DNA of 64,000 nucleotides. Origin: an uncultured Nitrososphaerota archaeon (GTDB lineage: Archaea > Thermoproteota > Nitrososphaeria > Nitrososphaerales > CADDZS01). The notes beneath the pieces were generated by a model. It was not told the DNA's origin. It made no database searches and saw only the letters and a list, made by a program, of their open reading frames with translations. The stretch covers positions 64,001 to 128,000 of the forward strand of contig CAWCYI010000006.1 in assembly GCA_963799845.1 (NCBI GenBank), read 5' to 3'. Of this stretch, positions 17,828 through 56,347 are shown piece by piece; within the stretch, counting starts at the first letter, position 1; every line of letters starts with the position of its first letter. The position numbers and the translations under genes are program-made.

Positions 17828-17923
17828 GCCGCCGTAGCTCAGCCTGGTAGAAGCGTGATCTTGAACGCCAATAGCAGCGGACTGTTAATCCGTTGGTCGA
17901 AGGTCCAAGTCCTTCCGGCGGCG
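17828..17923 (+). tRNA. tRNA-Asn(GTT) with 22-nt intron (17851-17872) at position 22/23
   Basis: Acceptor GCCGCCG/CGGCGGC, anticodon loop CTGTTAA. Removing AAGCGTGATCTTGAACGCCAAT restores D-stem GCTC/GAGC, with central helix UGGU/GCCA. No encoded CCA. Confidence 0.9.
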
Positions 17924-47248: not shown

Positions 47249-47863
47249 TCAGAGGGGTTTAATCGGTCTCCACTTTGCAATCTTGTAATAGATTACTTCG
47301 CCCCGCCTCTCGACGACAGCGACGACCGCTTCCTTTCCCATGGTCGACATCTCATCCACATGTTTTTTCAATTCCGACAGGCTCATCGTTTTTCCCTCGT
47401 TCAGACCAAACACGATGTATTTTGCAGCCTTGTTACCGTAGTCACCTCGATCGTAGACTCTAAAGTCGATGGGAAATCCAAAGCCCTCCCGAACCACATA
47501 GCCGCGGCTTCTAAGATCTCTAAATATCAAAAATCTTGTCCAGGCGTTCTCGTCTCGCTCCATTGCGAAGCTGACATAGTCGGTGAAATTAACCTTCCCA
47601 AGTTTGGTCGATTTGCTGGATTTCTTTGCCTTATCTTTCAGCGCAAGTTTGTTGCTGTACATCAAGTAAAGCACTTCGTAATCTTTAAGGTAAAACTGAT
47701 CGTTGTCCCTGATCCCAAATCCCTTGGATTCAAGTAATTGAGCATCCTCGCTGCGAGATAGGACTACATGGTCAACCCTTTTTGAATAGAAAGCTTCGAT
47801 AATTACCTGTTGTAAATCCTCATCTTTGCCTGTCCTTTGCGAACCTGAATTTCGATCGGACAT
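47249..47863 (-). CDS. endA: tRNA-intron endonuclease, probably the structural (beta) subunit
   Basis: FRDLRSRGYVV..GFGF..DFRVY, VIYYK; the catalytic Tyr and His positions appear replaced; own TATA-like box at ~47893-47900. Confidence 0.8.
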   Translation of the reverse strand: MSDRNSGSQRTGKDEDLQQVIIEAFYSKRVDHVVLSRSEDAQLLESKGFGIRDNDQFYLKDYEVLYLMYSNKLALKDKAKKSSKSTKLGKVNFTDYVSFAMERDENAWTRFLIFRDLRSRGYVVREGFGFPIDFRVYDRGDYGNKAAKYIVFGLNEGKTMSLSELKKHVDEMSTMGKEAVVAVVERRGEVIYYKIAKWRPIKPL

Positions 47864-48006
47864 ATCCGAAGATTCAGAATTCTTTTGGAATCTATATACT
47901 GGATTTGGATTTTCAGGTTCAGCGGGTTCCGAAATTGTCAAGGTCAATCAGCGAACATTAAAAAAGAATCTTTCGTGACATCTCAGTTTCAAATCTAGTT
48001 TATAAA

Positions 48007-48114
48007 CCCCCCCCCACTCACGCGCCCGCGCGCCCCAGAGAGACCAAGAGACTCCAAGAGAGACTGAGAGAGTGCCAATATGCACACACACTTTCGCGTC
48101 TGCCCTAAAAGAAT
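48007..48114 (+). repeat. Left terminal inverted repeat (108 bp, C9 terminus)
   Basis: Reverse complement of 53457-53566 apart from homopolymer length. Confidence 0.97.
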
Positions 48115-48266
48115 TATAAACGTTCTATTGCCTTCTTAGCAGACTGTATCATATTCAATCTTTGTTGTCGTTTCTTTTCTTCTAGTTCTAATTTCTTGTT
48201 CCTCAGTCTTTGAGACTGAGTTTCTTCGTCTATAACTTCTTGCTTATTCTTGTCTGTCATAGTCAT
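48114..48266 (-). CDS. 50-aa coiled-coil protein (not in ORF track)
   Basis: MTMTDKNKQEVIDEETQSQRLRNKKLELEEKKRQQRLNMIQSAKKAIERL; ATGA overlap with the upstream gene; stop lies at the TIR edge. Confidence 0.55.
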   Translation of the reverse strand: MTMTDKNKQEVIDEETQSQRLRNKKLELEEKKRQQRLNMIQSAKKAIERL

Positions 48267-48439
48267 AATTTCTCTACCTGTTTTCTATTCTTGTTTAGAT
48301 GTTCTTGGAATTTCTTCATGTCTTTTATCTGATATACATCATGTCCTTGTTTCGCGTGAAGTTTAGCATCATGCTTTTCGAGGAATCCTTTGCACATAGG
48401 ACTTTTACAGAAATAGTATTTCTTCCCAAAGCCTAGCAA
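48263..48439 (-). CDS. 58-aa C2H2-like zinc-finger protein (not in ORF track)
   Basis: YYFCKSPMCKGFLEKHDAKLHAKQGHDV; TTG start overlaps the upstream stop. Confidence 0.6.
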   Translation of the reverse strand: MLGFGKKYYFCKSPMCKGFLEKHDAKLHAKQGHDVYQIKDMKKFQEHLNKNRKQVEKL

Positions 48440-48723
48440 TTTAATTTGTTTCTCCTTTTGTATTCATTCATGCACGCTTTAGAACAATAATCTTGTTTGT
48501 AATAAATTTCGTTCACTTGGTATCTTTTTCCGCATTGTTTGCATAATTGTTTGACTGCTCCATTCTTGCAGATTTTTCGGTTTGTATTTGATTCTCTCGA
48601 ATAGACGCTTGATGTTCTCTTTGTAGTCTCAAATTCTTGATTGCTAACTTCATATCCTGTAATCGCTTCCCTTTCACTTTCGTTAATTTCAAACACTTCC
48701 AATATTTTCTTTCTGAGATTCAT
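48433..48723 (-). CDS. Zinc-finger protein (CxxC...YCSxxC, phage-type)
   Basis: CKQCGKRY...YCSKACM. Confidence 0.7.
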   Translation of the reverse strand: MNLRKKILEVFEINESEREAITGYEVSNQEFETTKRTSSVYSRESNTNRKICKNGAVKQLCKQCGKRYQVNEIYYKQDYCSKACMNEYKRRNKLNC

Positions 48724-49049
48724 GATGAGAGTTTGTAAAACCTGAATGTTTTTGGACAGAGATAGTATATTGGAATCTTTTTCTTAATGGCGTAAACGAG
48801 TTCAGACGCTACTCCAATAAGGAATAATTCGTGATATGGATAGTAATAGGACTGTAAAGAAGTGAAAACAAAGATGTCTGAACGTCTGATTACTCGAAAG
48901 AACTCTCGCATGTCTTTATCCGAGTATTTGATTGTAGAAGGATTGAATATCGAGTAATTAGGAAATTCCTTCTTAATTACCTTCAAACAGTCTCTTTCCA
49001 ATGGACTGCCATACTGCTTTATGCTATGAGCAAAATAGACTCTTTTCAT
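48720..49049 (-). CDS. Nucleoside 2-deoxyribosyltransferase-like protein
   Basis: VYFAHS...IFNP...IRRSDIFVF...GVASELVYA.KKKIPIY. Confidence 0.65.
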   Translation of the reverse strand: MKRVYFAHSIKQYGSPLERDCLKVIKKEFPNYSIFNPSTIKYSDKDMREFFRVIRRSDIFVFTSLQSYYYPYHELFLIGVASELVYAIKKKIPIYYLCPKTFRFYKLSS

Positions 49050-49056
49050 TTTGATT

Positions 49057-49383
49057 TCACTTACTCGGAGTAGGATAAAGTTCTAATTTGCCGATTAGTC
49101 GTTTGTCTGTATGTTTCTTGTTAGGACAATGGCATAGGATTAGTTTAGGTTCGGGATTTACTACATTTCCTCTTTCATCAAACTTTGCACTAATCCGAAT
49201 TCGTTCAAAGCGATAATCAAAGGGTTGTTTCAAACGTGCGATTAGATGTATTCCGTCTTGAGTCTCGTATATGTCGAAGTTTTTAGTATCTAGATCGCAA
49301 TAGAATATACCCTTCTTTCCCTTCAGTCTAGAGGCTACTGCTTGATACCAGTTCTTTCGTTTTGGTAATCTTCGTTTCTTTAT
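49057..49383 (-). CDS. 108-aa protein with AEP-primase-like motifs, non-canonical (ATA) start (not in ORF track)
   Basis: Stop-free frame filling the gap exactly: IFYCDLD...YETQDGIHLI...RIRISAK. Confidence 0.55.
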   Translation of the reverse strand: MKKRRLPKRKNWYQAVASRLKGKKGIFYCDLDTKNFDIYETQDGIHLIARLKQPFDYRFERIRISAKFDERGNVVNPEPKLILCHCPNKKHTDKRLIGKLELYPTPSK

Positions 49384-49718
49384 CGTTTCTTCTTACCTCT
49401 TCCATAAACCGTTTTGAGATATTCAGGAATTGAAACGAATTTTCCACTTGGATTTCTTAGTCTCAGATTATGATTTTTGTCGAAAGTGAACTTAATTCTA
49501 GGATGCTTATTCCGATAACGGAAAGTTGCAACTTGTTTCTTGGTTAGTGGTCGTCTTTCTTGTTGTTTCTGTCTCTGTGAATAGTATTCATCTAGAATAC
49601 GCTGTTGACCTGAACTGAGCGGAGTTTTTATTTTACGTTCAACTTCAGCCGTATTGTTTGAACTCTCAACTAATTTACGGAAAGAACTCGAAAAGTCTGT
49701 AAGTTCGGTAATAATCAA
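49380..49718 (-). CDS. Basic hypothetical protein
   Basis: K/R-rich, RLRNPSGKFVS; AGGTGA SD-like motif just upstream. Confidence 0.65.
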   Translation of the reverse strand: MIITELTDFSSSFRKLVESSNNTAEVERKIKTPLSSGQQRILDEYYSQRQKQQERRPLTKKQVATFRYRNKHPRIKFTFDKNHNLRLRNPSGKFVSIPEYLKTVYGRGKKKR

Positions 49719-49830
49719 TTCACCTTTGTGAAATTCCTACTTCATTCATGTGGTGAGGACCCACGCACATTAGACACACCCCAATATGGAGAACCTTTTA
49801 CTGCAAGCAGTGGAGGTCCAAGATAGAAGC

Positions 49831-50124
49831 ATGCCAAGAAACTCGAGGTGGAGTCCTGATGACAAGATCAGGATAGTCCTTGAATCTTTGAACACCAACA
49901 TCTCCATGTCCGAGCTCTGCAGGAAGTACAACCTCACTCCAGGGACATTCTACCAGTGGAGGGAGAAATTCATTCACGGTGGAAAGCTTGCCCTCACTGG
50001 AGGTCTGAAGGATCCGGGGAAGGAGAAGGAGGCAGAGGTGGAGCGATTGAAGAAGCTCATTGGAGAACTAACAATCGCAAACGACGCAATGAAGCAGGTA
50101 CTGCAGGGATCGGGGAAAAAATGA
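49831..50124 (+). CDS. IS3 transposase OrfA (HTH)
   Basis: WSPDDKIRIVLE...SELCRKYNL...FYQWR, C-terminal leucine zipper. Confidence 0.88.
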   Translation: MPRNSRWSPDDKIRIVLESLNTNISMSELCRKYNLTPGTFYQWREKFIHGGKLALTGGLKDPGKEKEAEVERLKKLIGELTIANDAMKQVLQGSGKK

Positions 50125-50951
50125 GCGTCGCAATAATGGTTAACAAAGGATTGAGCTTGAGGAAAGCTCTCCGGTCCGTTGGGTCTTCGCAGGGAGCGTA
50201 TTACTACAAGCGTCACACAAGGCAGGATAAAGGAGCTCTCCGCGATCCGTCCATCATCTCGACAGTCAGGGACATTGCTCTAAAGAAGCCTATGTACGGA
50301 ACTAGGATGATGGCAGCTCTTCTATCAAAAGAACTTCGAAGACCCATCAATAGAAAGCAAGTGCAGCACGCCTACCGCATGATGGGCTGGATCACACCTC
50401 GATTGACGAGGAATGAGGTACTGAAATCTGTCTCGGATAAGATCCCGAAACCCAATGGAATAAATCAGTCATGGCAGACCGATCTCACATACATCCGCTG
50501 CGGAATAGATGGCTTTGGATATCTCTTCAACGTCATCGACGTGTTTTCAAGAGAATGGCTTGCGTATGTCTTTGATGGTTTTGCACGTAAGGAGAATGCA
50601 GTACAGGCTGTCGTAAAAGCTCTCGAGAAGCATCCCGAAGCTTCTGGAAAAGTGACTCTCTACAGCGACAACGGATCCCAGTACATCAGCGAGACATTCA
50701 AGCAGTCGATGAAAGCTTTAGGCATTAAGCAAAGATACATCGCCTACAACACTCCCGAGCAGAATGGATCAATTGAATCGTTCCACGGACGATTCAAGCG
50801 TGAATATGTTTGGCCGTACGATTTTAGATCCTTCCAGGAAGCTGATTCACACATAGCAGAAGCCTTCATAGATTACAACGAGAGGAGACCTCACTCGGCA
50901 CTCGGTTACATGAGTCCGTACGAATTCGTCTCCCAGATAGTAGTGAAATAG
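50121..50951 (+). CDS. IS3 transposase OrfB (DDE), in -1 frame via GGGAAAAAATGA
   Basis: WQTDLTY, IDVFSRE, YSDNGSQY, NGSIESFHG, YNERRPHSALG. Confidence 0.92.
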   Translation: MSVAIMVNKGLSLRKALRSVGSSQGAYYYKRHTRQDKGALRDPSIISTVRDIALKKPMYGTRMMAALLSKELRRPINRKQVQHAYRMMGWITPRLTRNEVLKSVSDKIPKPNGINQSWQTDLTYIRCGIDGFGYLFNVIDVFSREWLAYVFDGFARKENAVQAVVKALEKHPEASGKVTLYSDNGSQYISETFKQSMKALGIKQRYIAYNTPEQNGSIESFHGRFKREYVWPYDFRSFQEADSHIAEAFIDYNERRPHSALGYMSPYEFVSQIVVK

Positions 50952-51015
50952 AAGATGACACAAAATAATATGCAGTCAAACGAGTCAAAAGTGTGTCTAA
51001 AAGATGGGGTCCAGA

Positions 51016-51444
51016 TCACATGTCTTTGATTTCTTTTTTGCAGGATTTACAGAATCTTTTTCCTGCTAGACTATCCCAATACAAAACAGGATGAATGCAT
51101 TCTTTCGGTTCTTTATTTTCAGTTTGTTTAATCGGTATTGGAGTTTGAAATTTAGGCATTGATTGTTTTTCCGCACACTTTGCATGAGTTAGACCTTTAG
51201 CAAATATTCGTTCAATATCAATTGAATCTTTGCAAATTAAGCAAGTTATAGATTCAACTTTTTCTTTGAATGTTGTAAGAGTTTCATTCTCGGTTTCTAA
51301 TGCTGAATTCGCTTGCTCTAGTTTCTTAATGTAAGAACGCTGATGGAGTATTGTTAATTTCAAATCTCCAAAATCTTCATCTTTGTCTTCTGATTTGTTT
51401 TCATCTTCCTTTGGTTTCTTATCCCAAAATTTGTTTGCACTCAT
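51016..51444 (-). CDS. Coiled-coil and double zinc-finger protein, last 8 aa removed by the IS3 insertion
   Basis: CLIC...HAKC and CIH...CKSC; the stop codon comes from the IS end. Confidence 0.7.
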   Translation of the reverse strand: MSANKFWDKKPKEDENKSEDKDEDFGDLKLTILHQRSYIKKLEQANSALETENETLTTFKEKVESITCLICKDSIDIERIFAKGLTHAKCAEKQSMPKFQTPIPIKQTENKEPKECIHPVLYWDSLAGKRFCKSCKKEIKDM

Positions 51445-51872
51445 TGTAATTCCTCTTTCTTTAGAACATCTGACATTTCGATTATTGAACCGTCAGCGTT
51501 CACATGAGTCGATGGGTTCTCTTTGTTTGGAAGTTCTTTTCTCGGTTTAGGCAGTTTCTTTTTTTGCGGTGTGATGTTTTTTGCATTGGCAATCAAGTAT
51601 TCGCTAAATTCTTCAGGACTATTGCGTTTGATTTTTTCATACTGTAATCTTGCACTATCTACAAAGCGTTTAGCAGTTTCAGCCGTATAACTACTGGTTA
51701 GATCGTTCATTATTTCTAGTTCAGAATTACCTCTTAACATCGCTGAAACTATCGCTGAAATAATTGCGAAATTTGAATTTGCTCCGTCATGTCCTATAGG
51801 AGCAACGACAACACTATTTTCTCTCAAATAAGCCATGACTTCAGATATGAGTTCTTTCTGCTCTTGATTCAT
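51441..51872 (-). CDS. Hypothetical helical protein
   Basis: 143 aa, ATGA overlaps on both sides. Confidence 0.7.
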   Translation of the reverse strand: MNQEQKELISEVMAYLRENSVVVAPIGHDGANSNFAIISAIVSAMLRGNSELEIMNDLTSSYTAETAKRFVDSARLQYEKIKRNSPEEFSEYLIANAKNITPQKKKLPKPRKELPNKENPSTHVNADGSIIEMSDVLKKEELQ

Positions 51873-52063
51873 TGATTATCGACCTCAACGCCCACAATCT
51901 TCAATGAATCATGTCCATTATGCATAAAGGCAAGAGTGATTGTCTTGTAGTGATTATCTTTCATCCAATCTTTTATCTTTAGGGCAATCTTGTTATCATT
52001 CAATGGATTCTCAATTGCTGGAAAATTCTTTTCAAAGTATGCTTTCTGGTCGAAATTACTCAT
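51869..52063 (-). CDS. Hypothetical protein
   Basis: 64 aa within the operon. Confidence 0.6.
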   Translation of the reverse strand: MSNFDQKAYFEKNFPAIENPLNDNKIALKIKDWMKDNHYKTITLAFMHNGHDSLKIVGVEVDNQ

Positions 52064-52078
52064 ATTCTCACAATTGCC

Positions 52079-52354
52079 CTAGTTGATTGATTTCCGTTCT
52101 CTATTCCATAAACGGATACAAACCCTAGAATATTCTCTAGTTAGTCGTTCAGTCGTTGTAGGATACATTTCAAAAATTAATCGACTGACTTGTTTCAAAT
52201 CCTGTTTGTTATACTCGTTCAGAGATTTGAAACTCTGTTTTTTCATTTCTTCAACTATCGATTGAATAATTACAGATCGTCTTTTCGAGGTAGCAGGAAT
52301 GAAAGTTACTTCTAATTCCGATATATTTCCTTCGTAATTAACGCCTTTTTGCAT
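52079..52354 (-). CDS. Hypothetical protein, first gene of the leftward operon
   Basis: 91 aa, divergent from the wHTH gene. Confidence 0.6.
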   Translation of the reverse strand: MQKGVNYEGNISELEVTFIPATSKRRSVIIQSIVEEMKKQSFKSLNEYNKQDLKQVSRLIFEMYPTTTERLTREYSRVCIRLWNRERKSIN

Positions 52355-52417
52355 TACTTATCAGTAAACACAAATAGGTTTGAAATCCAATATCTGTTAA
52401 CCTGAGTCCGTTCTGAC

Positions 52418-52777
52418 ATGCGTAAATTTACAATGCGCCAACTTGACAATGGTCTTGAAGCAATTTTGATAGGCAGTCAAATATCGAACGCATTACAAAT
52501 AGAACCGCTTACTGTTCAGGAATTATCGGCATTAACTTATCATCCAGAATCCACCGTTTACAAACATCTTGCGAAACTGAATGAAGCGGGATATTTGGAA
52601 AAACATTTTGAAAATAGACAATGCTCTAATGGAGAAGGTCGAAAGTTTGCTGTTTATTCTTTGAAAGCGAAACCTATTGGATATATTCAGATAAACAAAT
52701 TCATGCTGAATAGACTAGAACGCAACTTGAGAAAAGAAGGTATCAATTGGAGTGTTCGAGAAACTAACTCAGGTTAA
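52418..52777 (+). CDS. Winged-HTH (ArsR/TrmB-like) protein, possibly the N-terminus of the integrase
   Basis: PLTVQELS...ESTVYKHLAKLNEAGYLE...GRKFAVYSL. Confidence 0.8.
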   Translation: MRKFTMRQLDNGLEAILIGSQISNALQIEPLTVQELSALTYHPESTVYKHLAKLNEAGYLEKHFENRQCSNGEGRKFAVYSLKAKPIGYIQINKFMLNRLERNLRKEGINWSVRETNSG

Positions 52778-53453
52778 TCAAGCGTGGCTTTGTGATTTCT
52801 CTTATCTTACTAGACGATTCGCCTATTCTGGAGTCTCTAACAGGAAATACAATCCTAATCCTTCTACGGAAGAATGGAGAGGACAATGGCATAAAACAGG
52901 TTCAAAGAAGAACCCTACATTTTATCCGAAATGGTCGAGATACAACTTTCGAGAGACTGAGAAATACGGTTCTCATAGAAATATTGCAATTTACGATAAA
53001 CCTATTCTCCTTTTTGCTATTCAGGATGCTTACAGTCGTTTCATTATCCATGCTCACTTAAGACAGTCTTCCAAAGAATTCGTAAACATGTCTCATACTT
53101 TCCCTAGATGGTTTGAGTTAGACGATTGTTTCAAAGAAGCGTTTGAATTTCAAAAACCATTGAAGAGACTAGGTAAACCGTTTGAGTTTCTTATGGATGG
53201 AATGATTCATAGATGGTATAGCAAAAAACTTGAAGGTAATTATTTCATTTCAAAAGCAGTAAAAGAAAAGAATCACTTTCTCTTATCTCCCTTAGACGCT
53301 TTCTTCGGAAGGATTCAAAACGAAATGAGAACCGAATTAACTAATAGAAATCTAACCAATTATGTTGATTACTACAATTACGAAAGACCTCATTCAGCAT
53401 TGAACGGAAAGACTCCAGCAGACTATTTCTTTTCGGGTAATGTCTTTTGGTAA
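52752..53453 (+). CDS. Divergent rve-superfamily integrase/transposase
   Basis: NQAWLCDF, IQDAYSRFII, FLMDG, PLDAFFGRIQNE, YYNYERPHSALNGKTP. Confidence 0.85.
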   Translation: MFEKLTQVNQAWLCDFSYLTRRFAYSGVSNRKYNPNPSTEEWRGQWHKTGSKKNPTFYPKWSRYNFRETEKYGSHRNIAIYDKPILLFAIQDAYSRFIIHAHLRQSSKEFVNMSHTFPRWFELDDCFKEAFEFQKPLKRLGKPFEFLMDGMIHRWYSKKLEGNYFISKAVKEKNHFLLSPLDAFFGRIQNEMRTELTNRNLTNYVDYYNYERPHSALNGKTPADYFFSGNVFW

Positions 53454-53456
53454 TCT

Positions 53457-53566
53457 ATTCTTTTAGGGCAGACGCGAAAGTGTGTGTGCATATTGGCACT
53501 CTCTCAGTCTCTCTTGGAGTCTCTTGGTCTCTCTGGGGCGCGCGGGCGCGTGAGTGGGGGGGGGGG
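53457..53566 (-). repeat. Right terminal inverted repeat (110 bp, G11 terminus)
   Basis: Reverse complement of 48007-48114. Confidence 0.97.
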
Positions 53567-53574
53567 TTTATAAA
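53567..53574 (+). promoter_or_regulatory. TATA box of mtnA and duplicated target site TTTATAAA (other copy at 47999-48006)
   Basis: Consensus archaeal TATA box 33 nt upstream of the ATG at 53608. Confidence 0.7.
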
Positions 53575-53607
53575 CCGAAGGCTGGTCTAACGAACCTGAG
53601 TTCGACA

Positions 53608-54751
53608 ATGGAAGGAAAACTGAACTTCTATGAACAAAGGACGATAAAATGGGATGAAAAGAAAAATTCTGTTGTAATGATAGATCAGACCTTACTGCCG
53701 GTAACGCTATCGTTTGTTGAATGTACCGACGTTTCACAAATAATTGATGCGATAAAAACCATGAAGGTCAGGGGTGCTCCTGCCATCGGTGTAACAGGGG
53801 CGATGGGAGTTGCACTGTCTGTTTTTGCTTCCGAATCTACAACCAAGAAAGATCTTCTTCGGGAGATTGAGCCCGATGTGATCGCTCTAAAGGCTGCAAG
53901 GCCAACCGCGATAAATCTCGCATGGGGAGTGGATAGGTCTGTCGATTATCTGAAAACTAAATTGCCGGAGCAGTTTGACCGGAATCTTCCCAGGCAAGAA
54001 CTGGTTGAATTTGTCAAAGATTTAGCAGATTATGACGTTGAAACCAACAAGAAACTATCTGATCTTGGTGCCAAGCTTTTCGTTCCGGCGACAGCGTACT
54101 GACTCACTGTAATTGAATTTCAGACGTTTCGAATGAAACCTTTGGATTCAGCAGATTGCAGGTGCGCTGGCAACAGTTGGATACGGAACTGCTCTGGGTG
54201 TTCTGAGATCAGTCGCAAACCAAGGTAAGACACTGAAAGTGTACGCGGCCGAGGCAAGGCCGGTACTTCAGGGAGCGAGATTAACAGCGTTTGAACTCAT
54301 TACTGACGGGTTCGACGTTACACTCATGCCCGACACTGCAATTGGGATCTCAATGCAAAGAGGAATGATAGACAGAGTAATCGTGGGAGCCGATCGCATA
54401 ACCAAGACTGGGCACGTCTTCAACAAAGTCGGGACATATCAGATTGCAGCCTTGGCGAAGAGACACAATGTCCCATTCTATGTCGCAGCTCCACTATCGA
54501 CTTTCGACTTTGAGACCAATTTGAAGGATGTAAAGATCGAGGAGCGCTCCCCGGACGAAGTGAGGAAAATGAGAGGTCAGCAGACGGCACCCGAAAACGT
54601 GCCAGTATTCAATCCAGCGTTCGACGTAACTCCTCCCGAGCTGATCACGGCGATCATTTGCGAAGAAGGAGTCCTAACAAAGCCATTCGCACCAAAAATT
54701 AATAGGTTAAAGAAAAAAGCGCTAAGACAGAAATTAGGGCCCGTAGCCTAG
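53608..54751 (+). CDS. mtnA: Methylthioribose-1-phosphate isomerase (eIF-2B-like), with a 44-nt intron and a probable 1-nt indel in the T-run at 54077-54080
   Basis: IDQTLLP, VRGAPAIG, ARPTAINL, LTHCN|AGALATVGYGTALG, EARPVLQGARLTAFEL, GADRI, NKVGT, NPAFDVTP; the joined product would be 366 aa. Confidence 0.88.
54113..54156 (+). other. Bulge-helix-bulge-type intron in mtnA mRNA
   Basis: Central helix CUGU/GCAG, bulges AAU and AUU, intron hairpin; canonical cuts restore the Asn codon AA|T. Confidence 0.8.
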
Positions 54752-54891
54752 CATGGAGCTAAGCGTAGACTCGCATCCGCGTGCATGAGATCCTGTTTTT
54801 GATCTGCATACATCAGGGCATCGTGTTTGCCTTCAACTAGCGTGCAAGCCTTCGGAGCCGGGGGTCGTGGGTTCGAATCCCACCGGGCCCG
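54737..54891 (+). tRNA. tRNA-Arg(TCG) with three introns (54757-54786 and 54787-54811 at 19/20; 54824-54847 at 29/30)
   Basis: Exons give GGGCCCGTAGCCTAGCATGG-ATCAGGGCATCG-GCCTTCGGAGCCGGGGGTCGTGGGTTCGAATCCCACCGGGCCCG (76 nt); each intron has a 4-bp helix with 3-nt bulges. Confidence 0.85.
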
Positions 54892-55040
54892 CTCATTTTG
54901 ACCAAGGTATCAACGGAGTTCTTTTCCTATCGTCTGGTATTGCCGTTTTCAATAATTGGTTATGCCCCGGAGTTGGGGAAATAGCATTCAGGGTTAAATC
55001 CCAAAAGCGATCTCATATTATGATTAGAGTTTAACCCATT

Positions 55041-55367
55041 ATGGAAACGTACAATCTGGTTCAATGTGTGGACTGGGGACTGAGCTCCTTCGGCGCAAAT
55101 ATGAAACAAGTCACATACTCGTTGTTCGCATCTCGGAAACGAATATCATCAAACGATATCTTATCTAATCCCGAGGAGTTTGTCAATGCTTTGAAAGATG
55201 TTTTCGGTCCTGGATACCCGCTAGCGGAACGCGCAATCGTGAAAGAAATAAAGAGCGAATTCGAGCTATTTTCTCCGTCCAAGTCAAACAGCCTTCTGGA
55301 CGTCCTGGAGAACGCGAAAAGCAAGATCGCCGAGATATCAGAGAACCCGAAGATCATCGTAAAATGA
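55041..55367 (+). CDS. Small helical protein (DUF3227-like), paralog 1
   Basis: VQCVDWGLSSFG...ILSNPEEFVNALKDVFGPG...ERAIVKEI. Confidence 0.7.
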   Translation: METYNLVQCVDWGLSSFGANMKQVTYSLFASRKRISSNDILSNPEEFVNALKDVFGPGYPLAERAIVKEIKSEFELFSPSKSNSLLDVLENAKSKIAEISENPKIIVK

Positions 55368-55909
55368 CATTTTGAATTTTATGAATCGTTCGCTCCATCA
55401 TAAACCTCTAAAATAAATTCATTCCTCCCTACGCTGAAAAGCTTCTTCTCACATTGTTGTCTCAGCAGTTACTATCATGATCTTAAGACTTTGGATGCAG
55501 TTCTTGGATATCCTGATAGTTTCGATTCCATCAAACGTGGGCGTTCGATACCGACACGATTTCAAAAGCCCCCTTTCTTTTCTTGCAAATTTGTCGATGA
55601 ATAAGGGACAAAGTCGGAGGATCGTCAGTCAAAAGCAGCTTATTGATCTACGATTATACTATCTGATCGCTCTCCAAAATTAGAACTTACCTGCAAATTT
55701 TAAAGTTAAGGAAGCAAAGTAGAGTAATAGACAAATGGCTTGATCATTCTCGGGTTTTTAACCAACCGAATGTATTCGAATTGCGATAGAGGGGTTTTTC
55801 GCGCTTTTCATTGCCGTTTTCAATAATTGATTGTACATCAAACTCGGGAAATATAACATTCAGGGTTAAATCCCACCATTGGCCTTGGCTAGGATTAGTC
55901 TAACCTCTC

Positions 55910-56347
55910 ATGGAAATGTCTGACCTAGTTCAATGCGTTGAGAAAGCGCTGAGTTCTTTCGGTATGAACATGAAGCAAGCCACATACTTCTCAATGGAAT
56001 CTCGAGAAGGAATGGGCTCAGACGAGATCTTATCGAATCCCGAAGCATTTATTCGCACGTTGAAAAATACATTTGGCCCAGGATATCAGCTTGCCGAACG
56101 CAGGATCGTAAAAGAAATAAACGCACTGTGCTCTCCATCCAAGTCATCCAATCTTCTTGACGCCTTGGAGATGGCGAAAGGCAAAATTACCGATTTCAGA
56201 GGCGATCGAGATTCTGCACAATTCATGAATTGGGCGGCAGCCAAGGGCCCAGAGCTGGACGCGGATGCTCAAGTGGCTCCAGTCGCTAATTTTGGTTCCG
56301 GGAACCTTACTGTAGCTTTTGTTCGACAGAAGAAAACTCAGAAATAA
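55910..56347 (+). CDS. Small helical protein (DUF3227-like), paralog 2
   Basis: Clearly similar to 55041-55367 over ~100 aa. Confidence 0.7.
   Translation: MEMSDLVQCVEKALSSFGMNMKQATYFSMESREGMGSDEILSNPEAFIRTLKNTFGPGYQLAERRIVKEINALCSPSKSSNLLDALEMAKGKITDFRGDRDSAQFMNWAAAKGPELDADAQVAPVANFGSGNLTVAFVRQKKTQK

Follow-up and report, generated by a model that had tools for sequence, protein, structure and literature searches.

A 5.56-kb insert with long perfect inverted repeats in a Nitrososphaerota archaeon is probably a DDE transposon with cargo genes from a new, very rare family

What kind of mobile element lies between the genes endA and mtnA of an uncultured Nitrososphaerota archaeon? The window, that is the whole stretch of 64,000 nucleotides analysed here (contig CAWCYI010000006.1, positions 64,001 to 128,000, assembly GCA_963799845.1), contains a 5.56-kb AT-rich insert at 48008-53565, named E1. 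In an initial annotation made from the sequence alone, E1 was taken as a candidate new class of archaeal mobile element with an rve integrase and virus-like cargo. According to the present analysis, E1 is probably (probability about 0.7) a DNA transposon, non-composite and with cargo genes, which belongs to a new, very rare family and has a DDE-type transposase of the rve superfamily. The term "new class" is too strong as the machinery is of the classical rve-superfamily DDE type, and a new family of cargo-carrying DDE transposons is the best reading.

The two arms of the inverted repeat (48007-48114 and 53457-53564) are 108 nt long and 100% complementary. The C run at the left end has 9 bases and the G run at the right end has 11 when counted in the window. 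The word GTTTATAAAC is present outside both arms; it had been counted as a part of the repeat and is found to be the target duplication, so the ends of the element read C8ACTC../..GAGTG10. The AGAGAC words of the arm start at positions 33, 41 and 53, counted from window position 48007. No other copies of the arm sequence bearing these words, and no solo ends or copies resembling miniature inverted-repeat transposable elements, were found in the genome. The GC content of the interior is 0.33-0.37 compared to 0.44-0.49 in the flanks, with a block of 0.45-0.51 at about 49600-51000. Open reading frames (ORFs) are densely packed. Ten are directed leftward (91, 64, 143, 142, 112, 58, 109, 96, 58 and 50 aa), and the two others, of 119 and 233 aa, rightward. 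The last leftward ORF has its stop (48114) directly against the left repeat, while that of the transposase (53453) is 3 nt short of the right repeat. Except for the outer word, the architecture given in the initial annotation was recovered: perfect long repeats, an AT-rich interior, terminal stops within 0-3 nt of the repeats on both sides and two divergent units, the rightward one encoding a winged helix-turn-helix (wHTH) protein and an rve-type protein. A scan for sigma-70 promoters and terminators gave counts at shuffle level, with a model which is unsuited to an archaeon.

The insertion site was compared with that of relatives. E1 is flanked by endA (tRNA_int_endo, 4.2e-22) and mtnA (IF-2B family), which are neighbouring and divergent in nine of the ten fetched loci carrying endA; the tenth (L040) has too little upstream sequence to judge. 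The empty endA-mtnA site, suggested earlier as a check, was found in these nine relatives. One of the loci (L038) is from an unpublished genome, and the empty-site claim is independent of it. At the empty site only one TATA-box word of the GTTTATAAAC type is present, some 30-100 nt upstream of mtnA; it is exact in six relatives and has one or two changes in three. The endA gene and the TATA-box promoters mark the host as an archaeon. As one word is present at the empty site and two around E1, the 10-bp word was duplicated on insertion. In E1 itself, duplications of 10 or 11 bp fit equally because the word is a perfect palindrome beside C and G runs. After insertion, each of the divergent genes keeps one TATA copy at its native distance, now preceded by the G run and not by the native upstream bases. 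A short-read contig of a public run covers the stretch between endA and the inner end of the left repeat (47400-48114) and shows no difference from it. The public runs with matching contigs are labelled as soil metagenomes, no RNA run is listed among them, and the comparison used their assembled contigs. E1 is a genuine insertion with a target-site duplication and not an artefact.

The genome possesses two paralogues of the transposase with 39% identity, each situated at one end of an element with long inverted repeats. These elements are E2 (C4:1176121-1179541, 3,421 bp) and E3 (C6:951061-955613, 4,553 bp), and E3 consists of E2 plus a nested IS630-like element. E2 and E3 are 99.96% identical, with one mismatch in 2,647 bp, and two mismatches and one (CA)n gap in 799 bp. 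Exact 10-bp direct repeats are present around both, GTTAGCTATC around E2 and GTTAGCTAAG around E3, and both sites are near-palindromic. With a 10-bp duplication all four termini of E2 and E3 read AGACTAGAC. A duplication of 8 bp was also considered and rejected, since it would make the termini of E2 and E3 differ. The sister element has transposed recently. Recent activity of E1 had been proposed on the ground of its identical repeats; activity is supported through the identity of E2 and E3, whereas identical repeats are no clock for a transposon with inverted ends.

E1 and E2 share a common layout and four proteins: the transposase (37% identity), the 50-aa protein, the C2H2-type zinc-finger protein and the N-terminus of the third ORF. 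Their nucleotide similarity is limited to one 36-nt match. In the E2 arms the perfect stretch measures about 81 nt, with AGAC at positions 2, 7 and 21. The arms of E1 and E2 are unrelated to each other, though the arm pair of each element is perfect, and therefore the arms co-evolve within an element.

Some further features were observed at the sister loci. E2 is situated at the 3' end of a gene for an ATP-binding cassette (ABC) transporter substrate-binding protein, upstream of two permease genes (G000:C4:1179536-1181266). The ORF of the substrate-binding protein now ends inside the duplication and the end of E2, and the insertion may have altered the C-terminus and split the operon. The IS630-like element of E3 lies between a 153-aa ORF and the transposase, at about 2652-3775 of L048 (G000:C6:951049-955625) in the orientation of E3. 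Of its 18 copies in the genome, 17 are identical over 1,100 bp, and it is the most active insertion sequence (IS) seen here.

The transposase is poorly covered by the domain models. Its Pfam matches are limited to the C-terminal 25-40 residues (rve_3, 4.1e-7, 30.1 bits, residues 198-222; rve_2, 2.1e-5, 25 bits), and it has no match to the rve core model PF00665 above cut-off. In the alignment of 13 family sequences D15, D92 and D149 are invariant and position 182 is D or E. E1 has D at this position (a DDD variant), while E2 and the subgroup of the metagenome locus L014 have E. An AlphaFold2 model built from this alignment (predicted local distance difference test, pLDDT, 75; predicted template modelling score 0.76) shows an RNase-H-like fold. 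In the model, D15 is placed in the first strand (11-18), D149 ends the fourth core strand (145-149) and D182 is in the helix 172-191, 33 residues from D149; the predicted geometry of the active site is the canonical D, D, ~35, E. The best PDB matches in Foldseek were TnsB at the top, IstA and retroviral integrases, with E values of 2e-4 to 1e-2 (six with E<=1e-3). A sequence search of the PDB with the family profile returned a chance match only (E 0.015, a hemagglutinin).

The transposase begins straight at the catalytic core and has no helix-turn-helix (HTH) domain. The same start residues (M/L-F/L-E) are present in 11 of the 13 aligned homologues, and the other two are N-terminally extended. 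The stop of the wHTH gene is situated within the conserved V-N codons of the transposase, giving a 26-nt overlap with the downstream gene in the +1 frame. In the metagenome locus L015, whose transposase is 60% identical, the same 26-nt overlap is found with a 116-aa HTH-like ORF, along with a 91-aa homologue on the other strand; a GGAG word precedes the transposase start by about 7 nt. From these sequences, the wHTH protein and the transposase are best read as two separately translated, coupled proteins. A fusion of the two by programmed frameshift was considered unlikely, given the start shared by 11 of 13 homologues and the GGAG word upstream of the start in L015. A complex prediction for the transposase family with the wHTH protein scored 0.04 against a mark of 0.32, which was counted neither for nor against.

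Among the ten leftward ORFs, none scored above any Pfam cut-off. In the 58-aa zinc-finger protein shared with E2, the search of 5.8 billion proteins with a profile returned only the protein of the window itself. Cys/His clusters were seen by direct reading in four ORFs of E1 (58, 96, 142 and 58 aa). The 96-aa ORF alone has PHROGs matches among the ten, the best one to an HNH-endonuclease-type protein (1.1e-4). Beyond its first residues, the remainder of the E2 56-aa protein aligns to E1 in another frame (48585-48710). A short-read contig covering 48507-48841 confirms the sequence at this switch, and the region would represent either a real frameshift or overlapping genes. The 109-aa ORF, earlier called like nucleoside 2-deoxyribosyltransferase (NDT), showed an Atlas score of 0.90 with PF05014 in 17 of 30 matches. 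Its single-sequence model (pLDDT 71) weakly resembles NDT, DNPH1 and TIR domains of the PDB, the best E value being 2.4e-3. NDT thereby stays a reasonable lead, with no Pfam match to go with it. The designation of another ORF as like archaeo-eukaryotic primase found no support, as no Pfam or PHROGs hit points to such a protein.

The GC-rich middle of E1 is due to a nested IS3-family element, which was absent from the initial annotation. It encodes OrfA (49786-50124; HTH_Tnp_1, 1.2e-13) and, in the -1 frame at an A-rich slippery site, OrfB (50121-50951; rve_3, 2.2e-22; rve, 1e-16), and is flanked by a 4-bp duplication CATG (49747-49750 and 51019-51022). In the genome, the ORFs are identical in three copies, and one more diverged copy is present on C2. 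Short-read contigs of the public runs stop exactly at 49751 and 51018/51019, with unrelated sequence beyond. When the nested element is taken out, E1 is about 4,286 bp long and the 142-aa ORF becomes 150 aa, ending at the start codon of the next ORF; therefore the IS3 element splits one leftward operon. E1 appears to be damaged in this way, and also in having one conserved gene out of frame relative to E2. The features of E1 are collected in Table 1.

Table 1. Features of E1 and of its insertion site. Positions are those of the window.
Feature	Position	Strand	Remarks
Target-site duplication, left copy	47998..48007		GTTTATAAAC, TATA-box palindrome of the divergent endA/mtnA promoter; present once at the empty site of 9 relatives
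Left terminal inverted repeat	48008..48114		C8 tip, GC-alternating stretch, three AGAGAC words, (CA)n run
50-aa protein	48114..48266	-	Charged, probably coiled-coil; 56% identity in E2/E3
58-aa C2H2-type zinc-finger protein	48263..48439	-	44-47% identity in E2/E3; C11, C16, H28, H33 invariant
96-aa ORF	48433..48723	-	Cys-rich C-terminus; first 12 aa match the 56-aa protein of E2
109-aa protein	48720..49049	-	Possibly nucleoside 2-deoxyribosyltransferase/DNPH1-like (flavodoxin-like fold)
58-aa ORF	49057..49233	-	Cys/His cluster; no known family
112-aa ORF	49380..49718	-	Basic; no known family
Nested IS3-family insertion sequence	49751..51018	+	1,268 bp; TG..CA ends; not part of the original element
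142-aa ORF	51016..51444	-	Coiled-coil and Cys cluster; 3' end cut by IS3
143-aa ORF	51441..51872	-	No known family
64-aa ORF	51869..52063	-	No known family
91-aa ORF	52079..52354	-	First gene of the leftward unit; 39%-identity homologue at the same position in metagenome contig L015
Divergent intergenic region	52355..52417		63 bp; presumed promoters of both units
119-aa winged-helix protein (ArsR/HTH_5-type)	52418..52777	+	HTH_5 E 3.9e-8; presumed end-binding or regulatory subunit
233-aa DDE-type transposase, rve superfamily	52752..53453	+	D15/D149/D182; catalytic core only
Right terminal inverted repeat	53457..53565		Ends in G10
Target-site duplication, right copy	53566..53575		GTTTATAAAC

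The transposase family was found to be very rare. A word-indexed search of 5.8 billion proteins gave 12 matches to the transposase. An exhaustive search of 1.84 billion cluster representatives with a hidden Markov model gave 28 matches at E<=1e-10, of which 20 reach E<=1e-30. Beyond the family, the full-length matches that follow have E values of about 1e-6 and are IS481-like by NCBIfam. To these relations a FastTree phylogram was added, in which 24 family rows are split from 13 IS481/IS3-like rows by one long branch with a Shimodaira-Hasegawa-like support of 98, and E1 and E2 are grouped in one subclade of 12 rows. It is a quick tree constructed without ISfinder references, and shows distinctness, not placement. 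Within the genomes of 61 relatives, the own genome included, the E1 protein matched five at E<=0.001; the true family members among the 61 are the own genome, the same-genus genome G004 and fragments in the same-family genome G007. A class-wide sample of 401 genomes gave a full-length match in the own genome only, with weak partial matches of the generic rve type in four others (E 1e-7 to 1e-5). A phylum-wide sample of 401 genomes gave the own genome only at E<=1e-10. Both sets are samples and are no proof of absence. Scans of genome contigs and of viral contigs (IMG/VR) with the family alignment returned no confirmed relative. No description of this transposase family was found in the published literature, in a search which left supplementary tables outside, such as Table S2 of PMC6563490 listing all elements.

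Twelve metagenome loci of the family were obtained, most of them too short to delimit the element. The transposase of L018 is frameshifted, and L019-L022 are four relics of 117 aa. L014 holds a complete element of about 5.8 kb with GCCC(AAACCC)n tips, having two repeats at the left and three at the right. It is flanked on both sides by the palindrome TTACTAGTAA, and a duplication of 10 bp fits (10-15 possible). Its cargo includes a metallophosphoesterase, a 296-aa P-loop ATPase, an AbrB/MazE-type protein and a ribbon-helix-helix-like protein. The ATPase has a weak AAA match and its nearest Atlas clusters are mostly viral; in one listed cluster set PF00910 RNA_helicase is present in 10% of the members. 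The locus L006 from G004 shows a tip GCCCAAACCC(GC)n.. at a distance of only some 34 nt from the stop of the transposase; it has an N6/N4 DNA methylase as cargo and is adjoined by an IS110. The contents of L006 and L014 mean that cargo and arm length vary across the family. Most ORFs of E2 and L014 gave no match in PHROGs and Pfam. C-rich repetitive tips and near-palindromic AT-rich targets recur across the family. The features expected of homologues in the initial annotation were in part observed, with long ends in E2/E3 and C-rich tips and variable cargo in L014 and L006, while the tip sequences differ. As a separate observation, the flank directly after the right-hand TTACTAGTAA of L014 (6346-6370) reads GCCCACACAC.., which is tip-like and may have been left behind by a previous insertion into this site.

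In its mode of action the E1 family resembles those unit transposons of bacteria that use an rve-type transposase, and the following steps are proposed for it. The wHTH protein, the other small zinc-finger proteins or both would bind the repeated AGAGAC/AGAC words in the long ends and recruit the catalytic core. The core would cut the 3' ends, producing 3'-OH ends, and these may be joined to two target phosphates separated by one helical turn (10 bp) within an AT-rich palindrome that can bend. The trio at the left end of both E1 and E2 would serve element functions such as DNA binding or regulation and may not be random passengers, and the remaining ORFs of E1 would be variable cargo. The data are compatible with cut-and-paste and with copy-out/paste-in alike.

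Several observations weigh against a transposon of this kind. Neither TG..CA nor TGT..ACA, by which the nearest families are marked, is found at the tips, which differ between members (C8.. in E1, AGAC.. in E2, GCCC.. in L014 and L006), and the cleavage chemistry at the tips is putative. The tip repeat number even differs between the two ends of one element, C8 versus G10 in E1 and (CCCAAA)2 versus 3 in L014, which is odd for a transposase cutting at a fixed distance from its binding sites. Variable tips together with perfect, co-evolving arms are left unexplained by a simple transposon model. The partner upstream of the transposase is not conserved, E2 having an unrelated 153-aa ORF there and L014 no small ORF. 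The small cargo ORFs are orphans with almost empty Pfam and PHROGs results, and a role of theirs in transposition is conjecture. Only four elements (E1, E2, E3 and L014) are delimited at both ends. In the assembled contigs of the public runs, which drop rare forms, no excised, circular or end-joint form, no transposition intermediate and no empty-site sequence were seen.

The most serious of the other explanations, still an unlikely one, is that E1 is an integrated small plasmid, virus or satellite, in which the rve enzyme is only an integrase and the tips are the ends of a linear form, that is, a prokaryotic counterpart of Polinton-like elements. Operons of many tiny zinc-finger, wHTH and coiled-coil ORFs are typical of archaeal viruses and plasmids, and the operon of E1 resembles them. 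The varying tip repeat number at the two ends of one element, the mostly viral clusters nearest to the L014 ATPase and the perfect arms which are unrelated between E1 and E2 also point in this direction. Opposed to these are the gene content and the behaviour of the elements. Among the ORFs of E1 and E2, Pfam and PHROGs recognised no gene for a replicase, a polymerase, a capsid or packaging. The transposase and the 109-aa ORF have no match among 50,697 phage records, nor has the transposase family in the IMG/VR contigs, and no match to E1 or E2 resembling a CRISPR spacer exists in the genome. The cargo of E1 was earlier described as virus-like, and the same results leave this without positive evidence. 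E2, with 3.4 kb, is present as two chromosomal copies at unrelated sites with target duplications, which is the behaviour of a transposon. A lack of circular or excised joints in the public contigs argues in the same sense, weakly, as contigs lose rare forms. The initial annotation had left a small linear replicon, a satellite and a cargo transposon side by side; the repeats, the 10-bp duplication, the DDE enzyme and the differing cargo favour the cargo transposon.

A wider version of this idea, which appears improbable, concerns the whole family. It would be the archaeal counterpart of Polinton-like or satellite elements, existing as chromosomal inserts and as free, perhaps linear, DNA. The tips (C8-10, (CCCAAA)n, (CA)n) would undergo extension or repair outside the chromosome, and the arms would stay identical since one end is copied from the other. 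The conserved trio would serve replication or the hijacking of a helper virus and not transposition, and the L014 ATPase would belong to an ancestral replication module lost by E1 and E2. Casposons and Polintons resemble the E1 family in long inverted repeats, target duplication and multi-gene cargo, Polintons also in the rve integrase, but they are far larger. The 12 ORFs of E1 have no Pfam or PHROGs match to Cas1, to a protein-primed or family B polymerase or to a capsid protein. Duplications of casposons are about 14-15 bp long, and those of the ISM1 group, which lies outside the family comparison, 8 bp. For Polintons, PMC10045372 gives 6 bp. E1 also has no Phage_integrase match that would indicate a tyrosine integrase, and its flanking repeat is the 10-bp duplication of an intergenic TATA box, whereas proviruses of this kind have direct att repeats, often in a tRNA gene. 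E1 is not a tyrosine-recombinase provirus or integrative plasmid, a casposon or a Polinton-like element. The Asgard aloposons, described as tRNA-site-specific giants in PMC8813620, are unrelated.

It is equally doubtful that E1 is a divergent member of IS481 (or IS3) with passenger genes, an ordinary "transporter IS". IS481 and IS3 are the only named models which match the transposase, and the IS481 model does so in 11 of the 13 family members over about the C-terminal 30 residues only. The nearest full-length outgroups are IS481-like, and the plasmid matches are IS3 transposases over residues 130-225. E1 and IS481 have in common the rve superfamily fold, a conserved C-terminal motif (..RPHSAL..TP..), and inverted repeats with target duplication, and IS481 itself prefers short palindromic targets. 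With IS3, E1 shares the HTH gene upstream of and overlapping an rve-type catalytic gene, the same C-terminal motif and the DDE type. The scores are far below the curated cut-offs, 7-fold for IS481 (33.6 bits, cut-off 224, residues 195-226 only, and all 11 matching members far below) and 5-fold for IS3 (29.5 bits, cut-off 160). The family lacks the N-terminal HTH, its protein of 233 aa compares with about 290-430 aa in the IS481-like outgroups, and the branch between the family and the outgroups is long. In addition, E1 and E2 have 9-10 further genes, of which three are conserved between these elements. According to PMC10045372, IS481 is known in archaea and has TGT..ACA-type termini, short inverted ends and duplications of 2-15 bp, mostly 6, and the ends of IS481EU relatives are "mostly shorter than 50 bp". 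The exactly 10-bp duplications of E2 and E3 are within this range and are not its common value, while the termini of E1 and E2 are not TGT..ACA and their ends are 81-108 nt long. For IS3 the same source (PMC10045372) gives 3-5-bp duplications and TG..CA ends. These were seen in the nested copy, whereas E1 has a 10-bp duplication and C-run ends. The IS3 genes are fused by a -1 frameshift, whereas in E1 the downstream gene is in the +1 frame and has its own conserved start codon. By model scores, termini, gene layout and arm length E1 fits neither IS3 nor IS481, and the earlier statement that the element also differs from casposons and tyrosine-recombinase proviruses holds.

The cargo-carrying DDE transposon proposed here for E1 resembles Tn7-like elements, Tn552 and Mu, which are also multi-gene elements with inverted ends, several internal repeats in these ends, an rve-fold enzyme and variable cargo. 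These unit transposons make 5-bp duplications, compared to 10 bp here. The Tn7, Mu and IS21 types have an AAA+ regulator (TnsC/MuB/IstB-type), whereas no ATPase domain is present in the ORFs of E1 or E2, the weak AAA match being confined to the distant relative L014. They are bacterial, while the host here is an archaeon, and E1 and E2 are only 3.4-4.3 kb in size.

That the inverted repeat is an assembly artefact (a read fold-back or chimera) with no element behind it can be dismissed, for although the assembly of 9 contigs looks long-read based, has at least one probable indel error nearby (at 54076) and lacks short-read contig cover at the right-hand G run, an independent short-read contig spans the left junction without difference, the flanks rejoin to the syntenic empty site of nine relatives with exactly one copy of the word, paralogous elements of the same architecture are present at two other loci and related transposases were found in other samples.

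The neighbourhood of E1 showed further features. The frame of mtnA is interrupted and consists of two parts, 53608-54102 and 54239-54751. In short-read contigs of two runs an extra T follows 54076, and the break may partly be a long-read indel error; the extra T alone leaves the frame unrestored (169 versus 164 aa). A tRNA-like gene, apparently with a long intron, is seen at about 54733-54893 (+), with a D-arm-like sequence directly after mtnA and a perfect T-arm and acceptor 3' half at 54868-54893. It was reported neither by ARAGORN nor by Rfam at gathering score. The sole Rfam match in the window is a tRNA at 17828-17923, of 96 nt against a model of 71 positions, which probably contains an intron. 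Two small ORFs (55041-55367 and 55910-56347) are tandem paralogues with similar N-termini, and the sequence upstream of them is also repeated (54939-55003 and 55810-55875; direct repeats D1/D4, 76-96% identical).

A survey of thaumarchaeal genomes from 2019 described five classes of integrated elements, and in it passenger-carrying transposons, common in bacteria, are given as undetected in archaea (PMC6563490). E1, E2/E3, L006 and L014 would be such passenger-carrying elements of archaea, with several genes, inverted ends, target duplications and an rve-type enzyme. Their unusual features would be a catalytic core which lacks a DNA-binding domain and is coupled to a small, separate winged-helix gene; a duplication of 10 bp at palindromic sites (GTTTATAAAC, GTTAGCTATC, GTTAGCTAAG, TTACTAGTAA), in one case a TATA box, which leaves both promoters a TATA element; and very long perfect ends with homopolymer or telomere-like tips. 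The family also indicates that rare transposase clades, here 28 representatives at E<=1e-10 in 1.84 billion, escape the Pfam and IS-family models.

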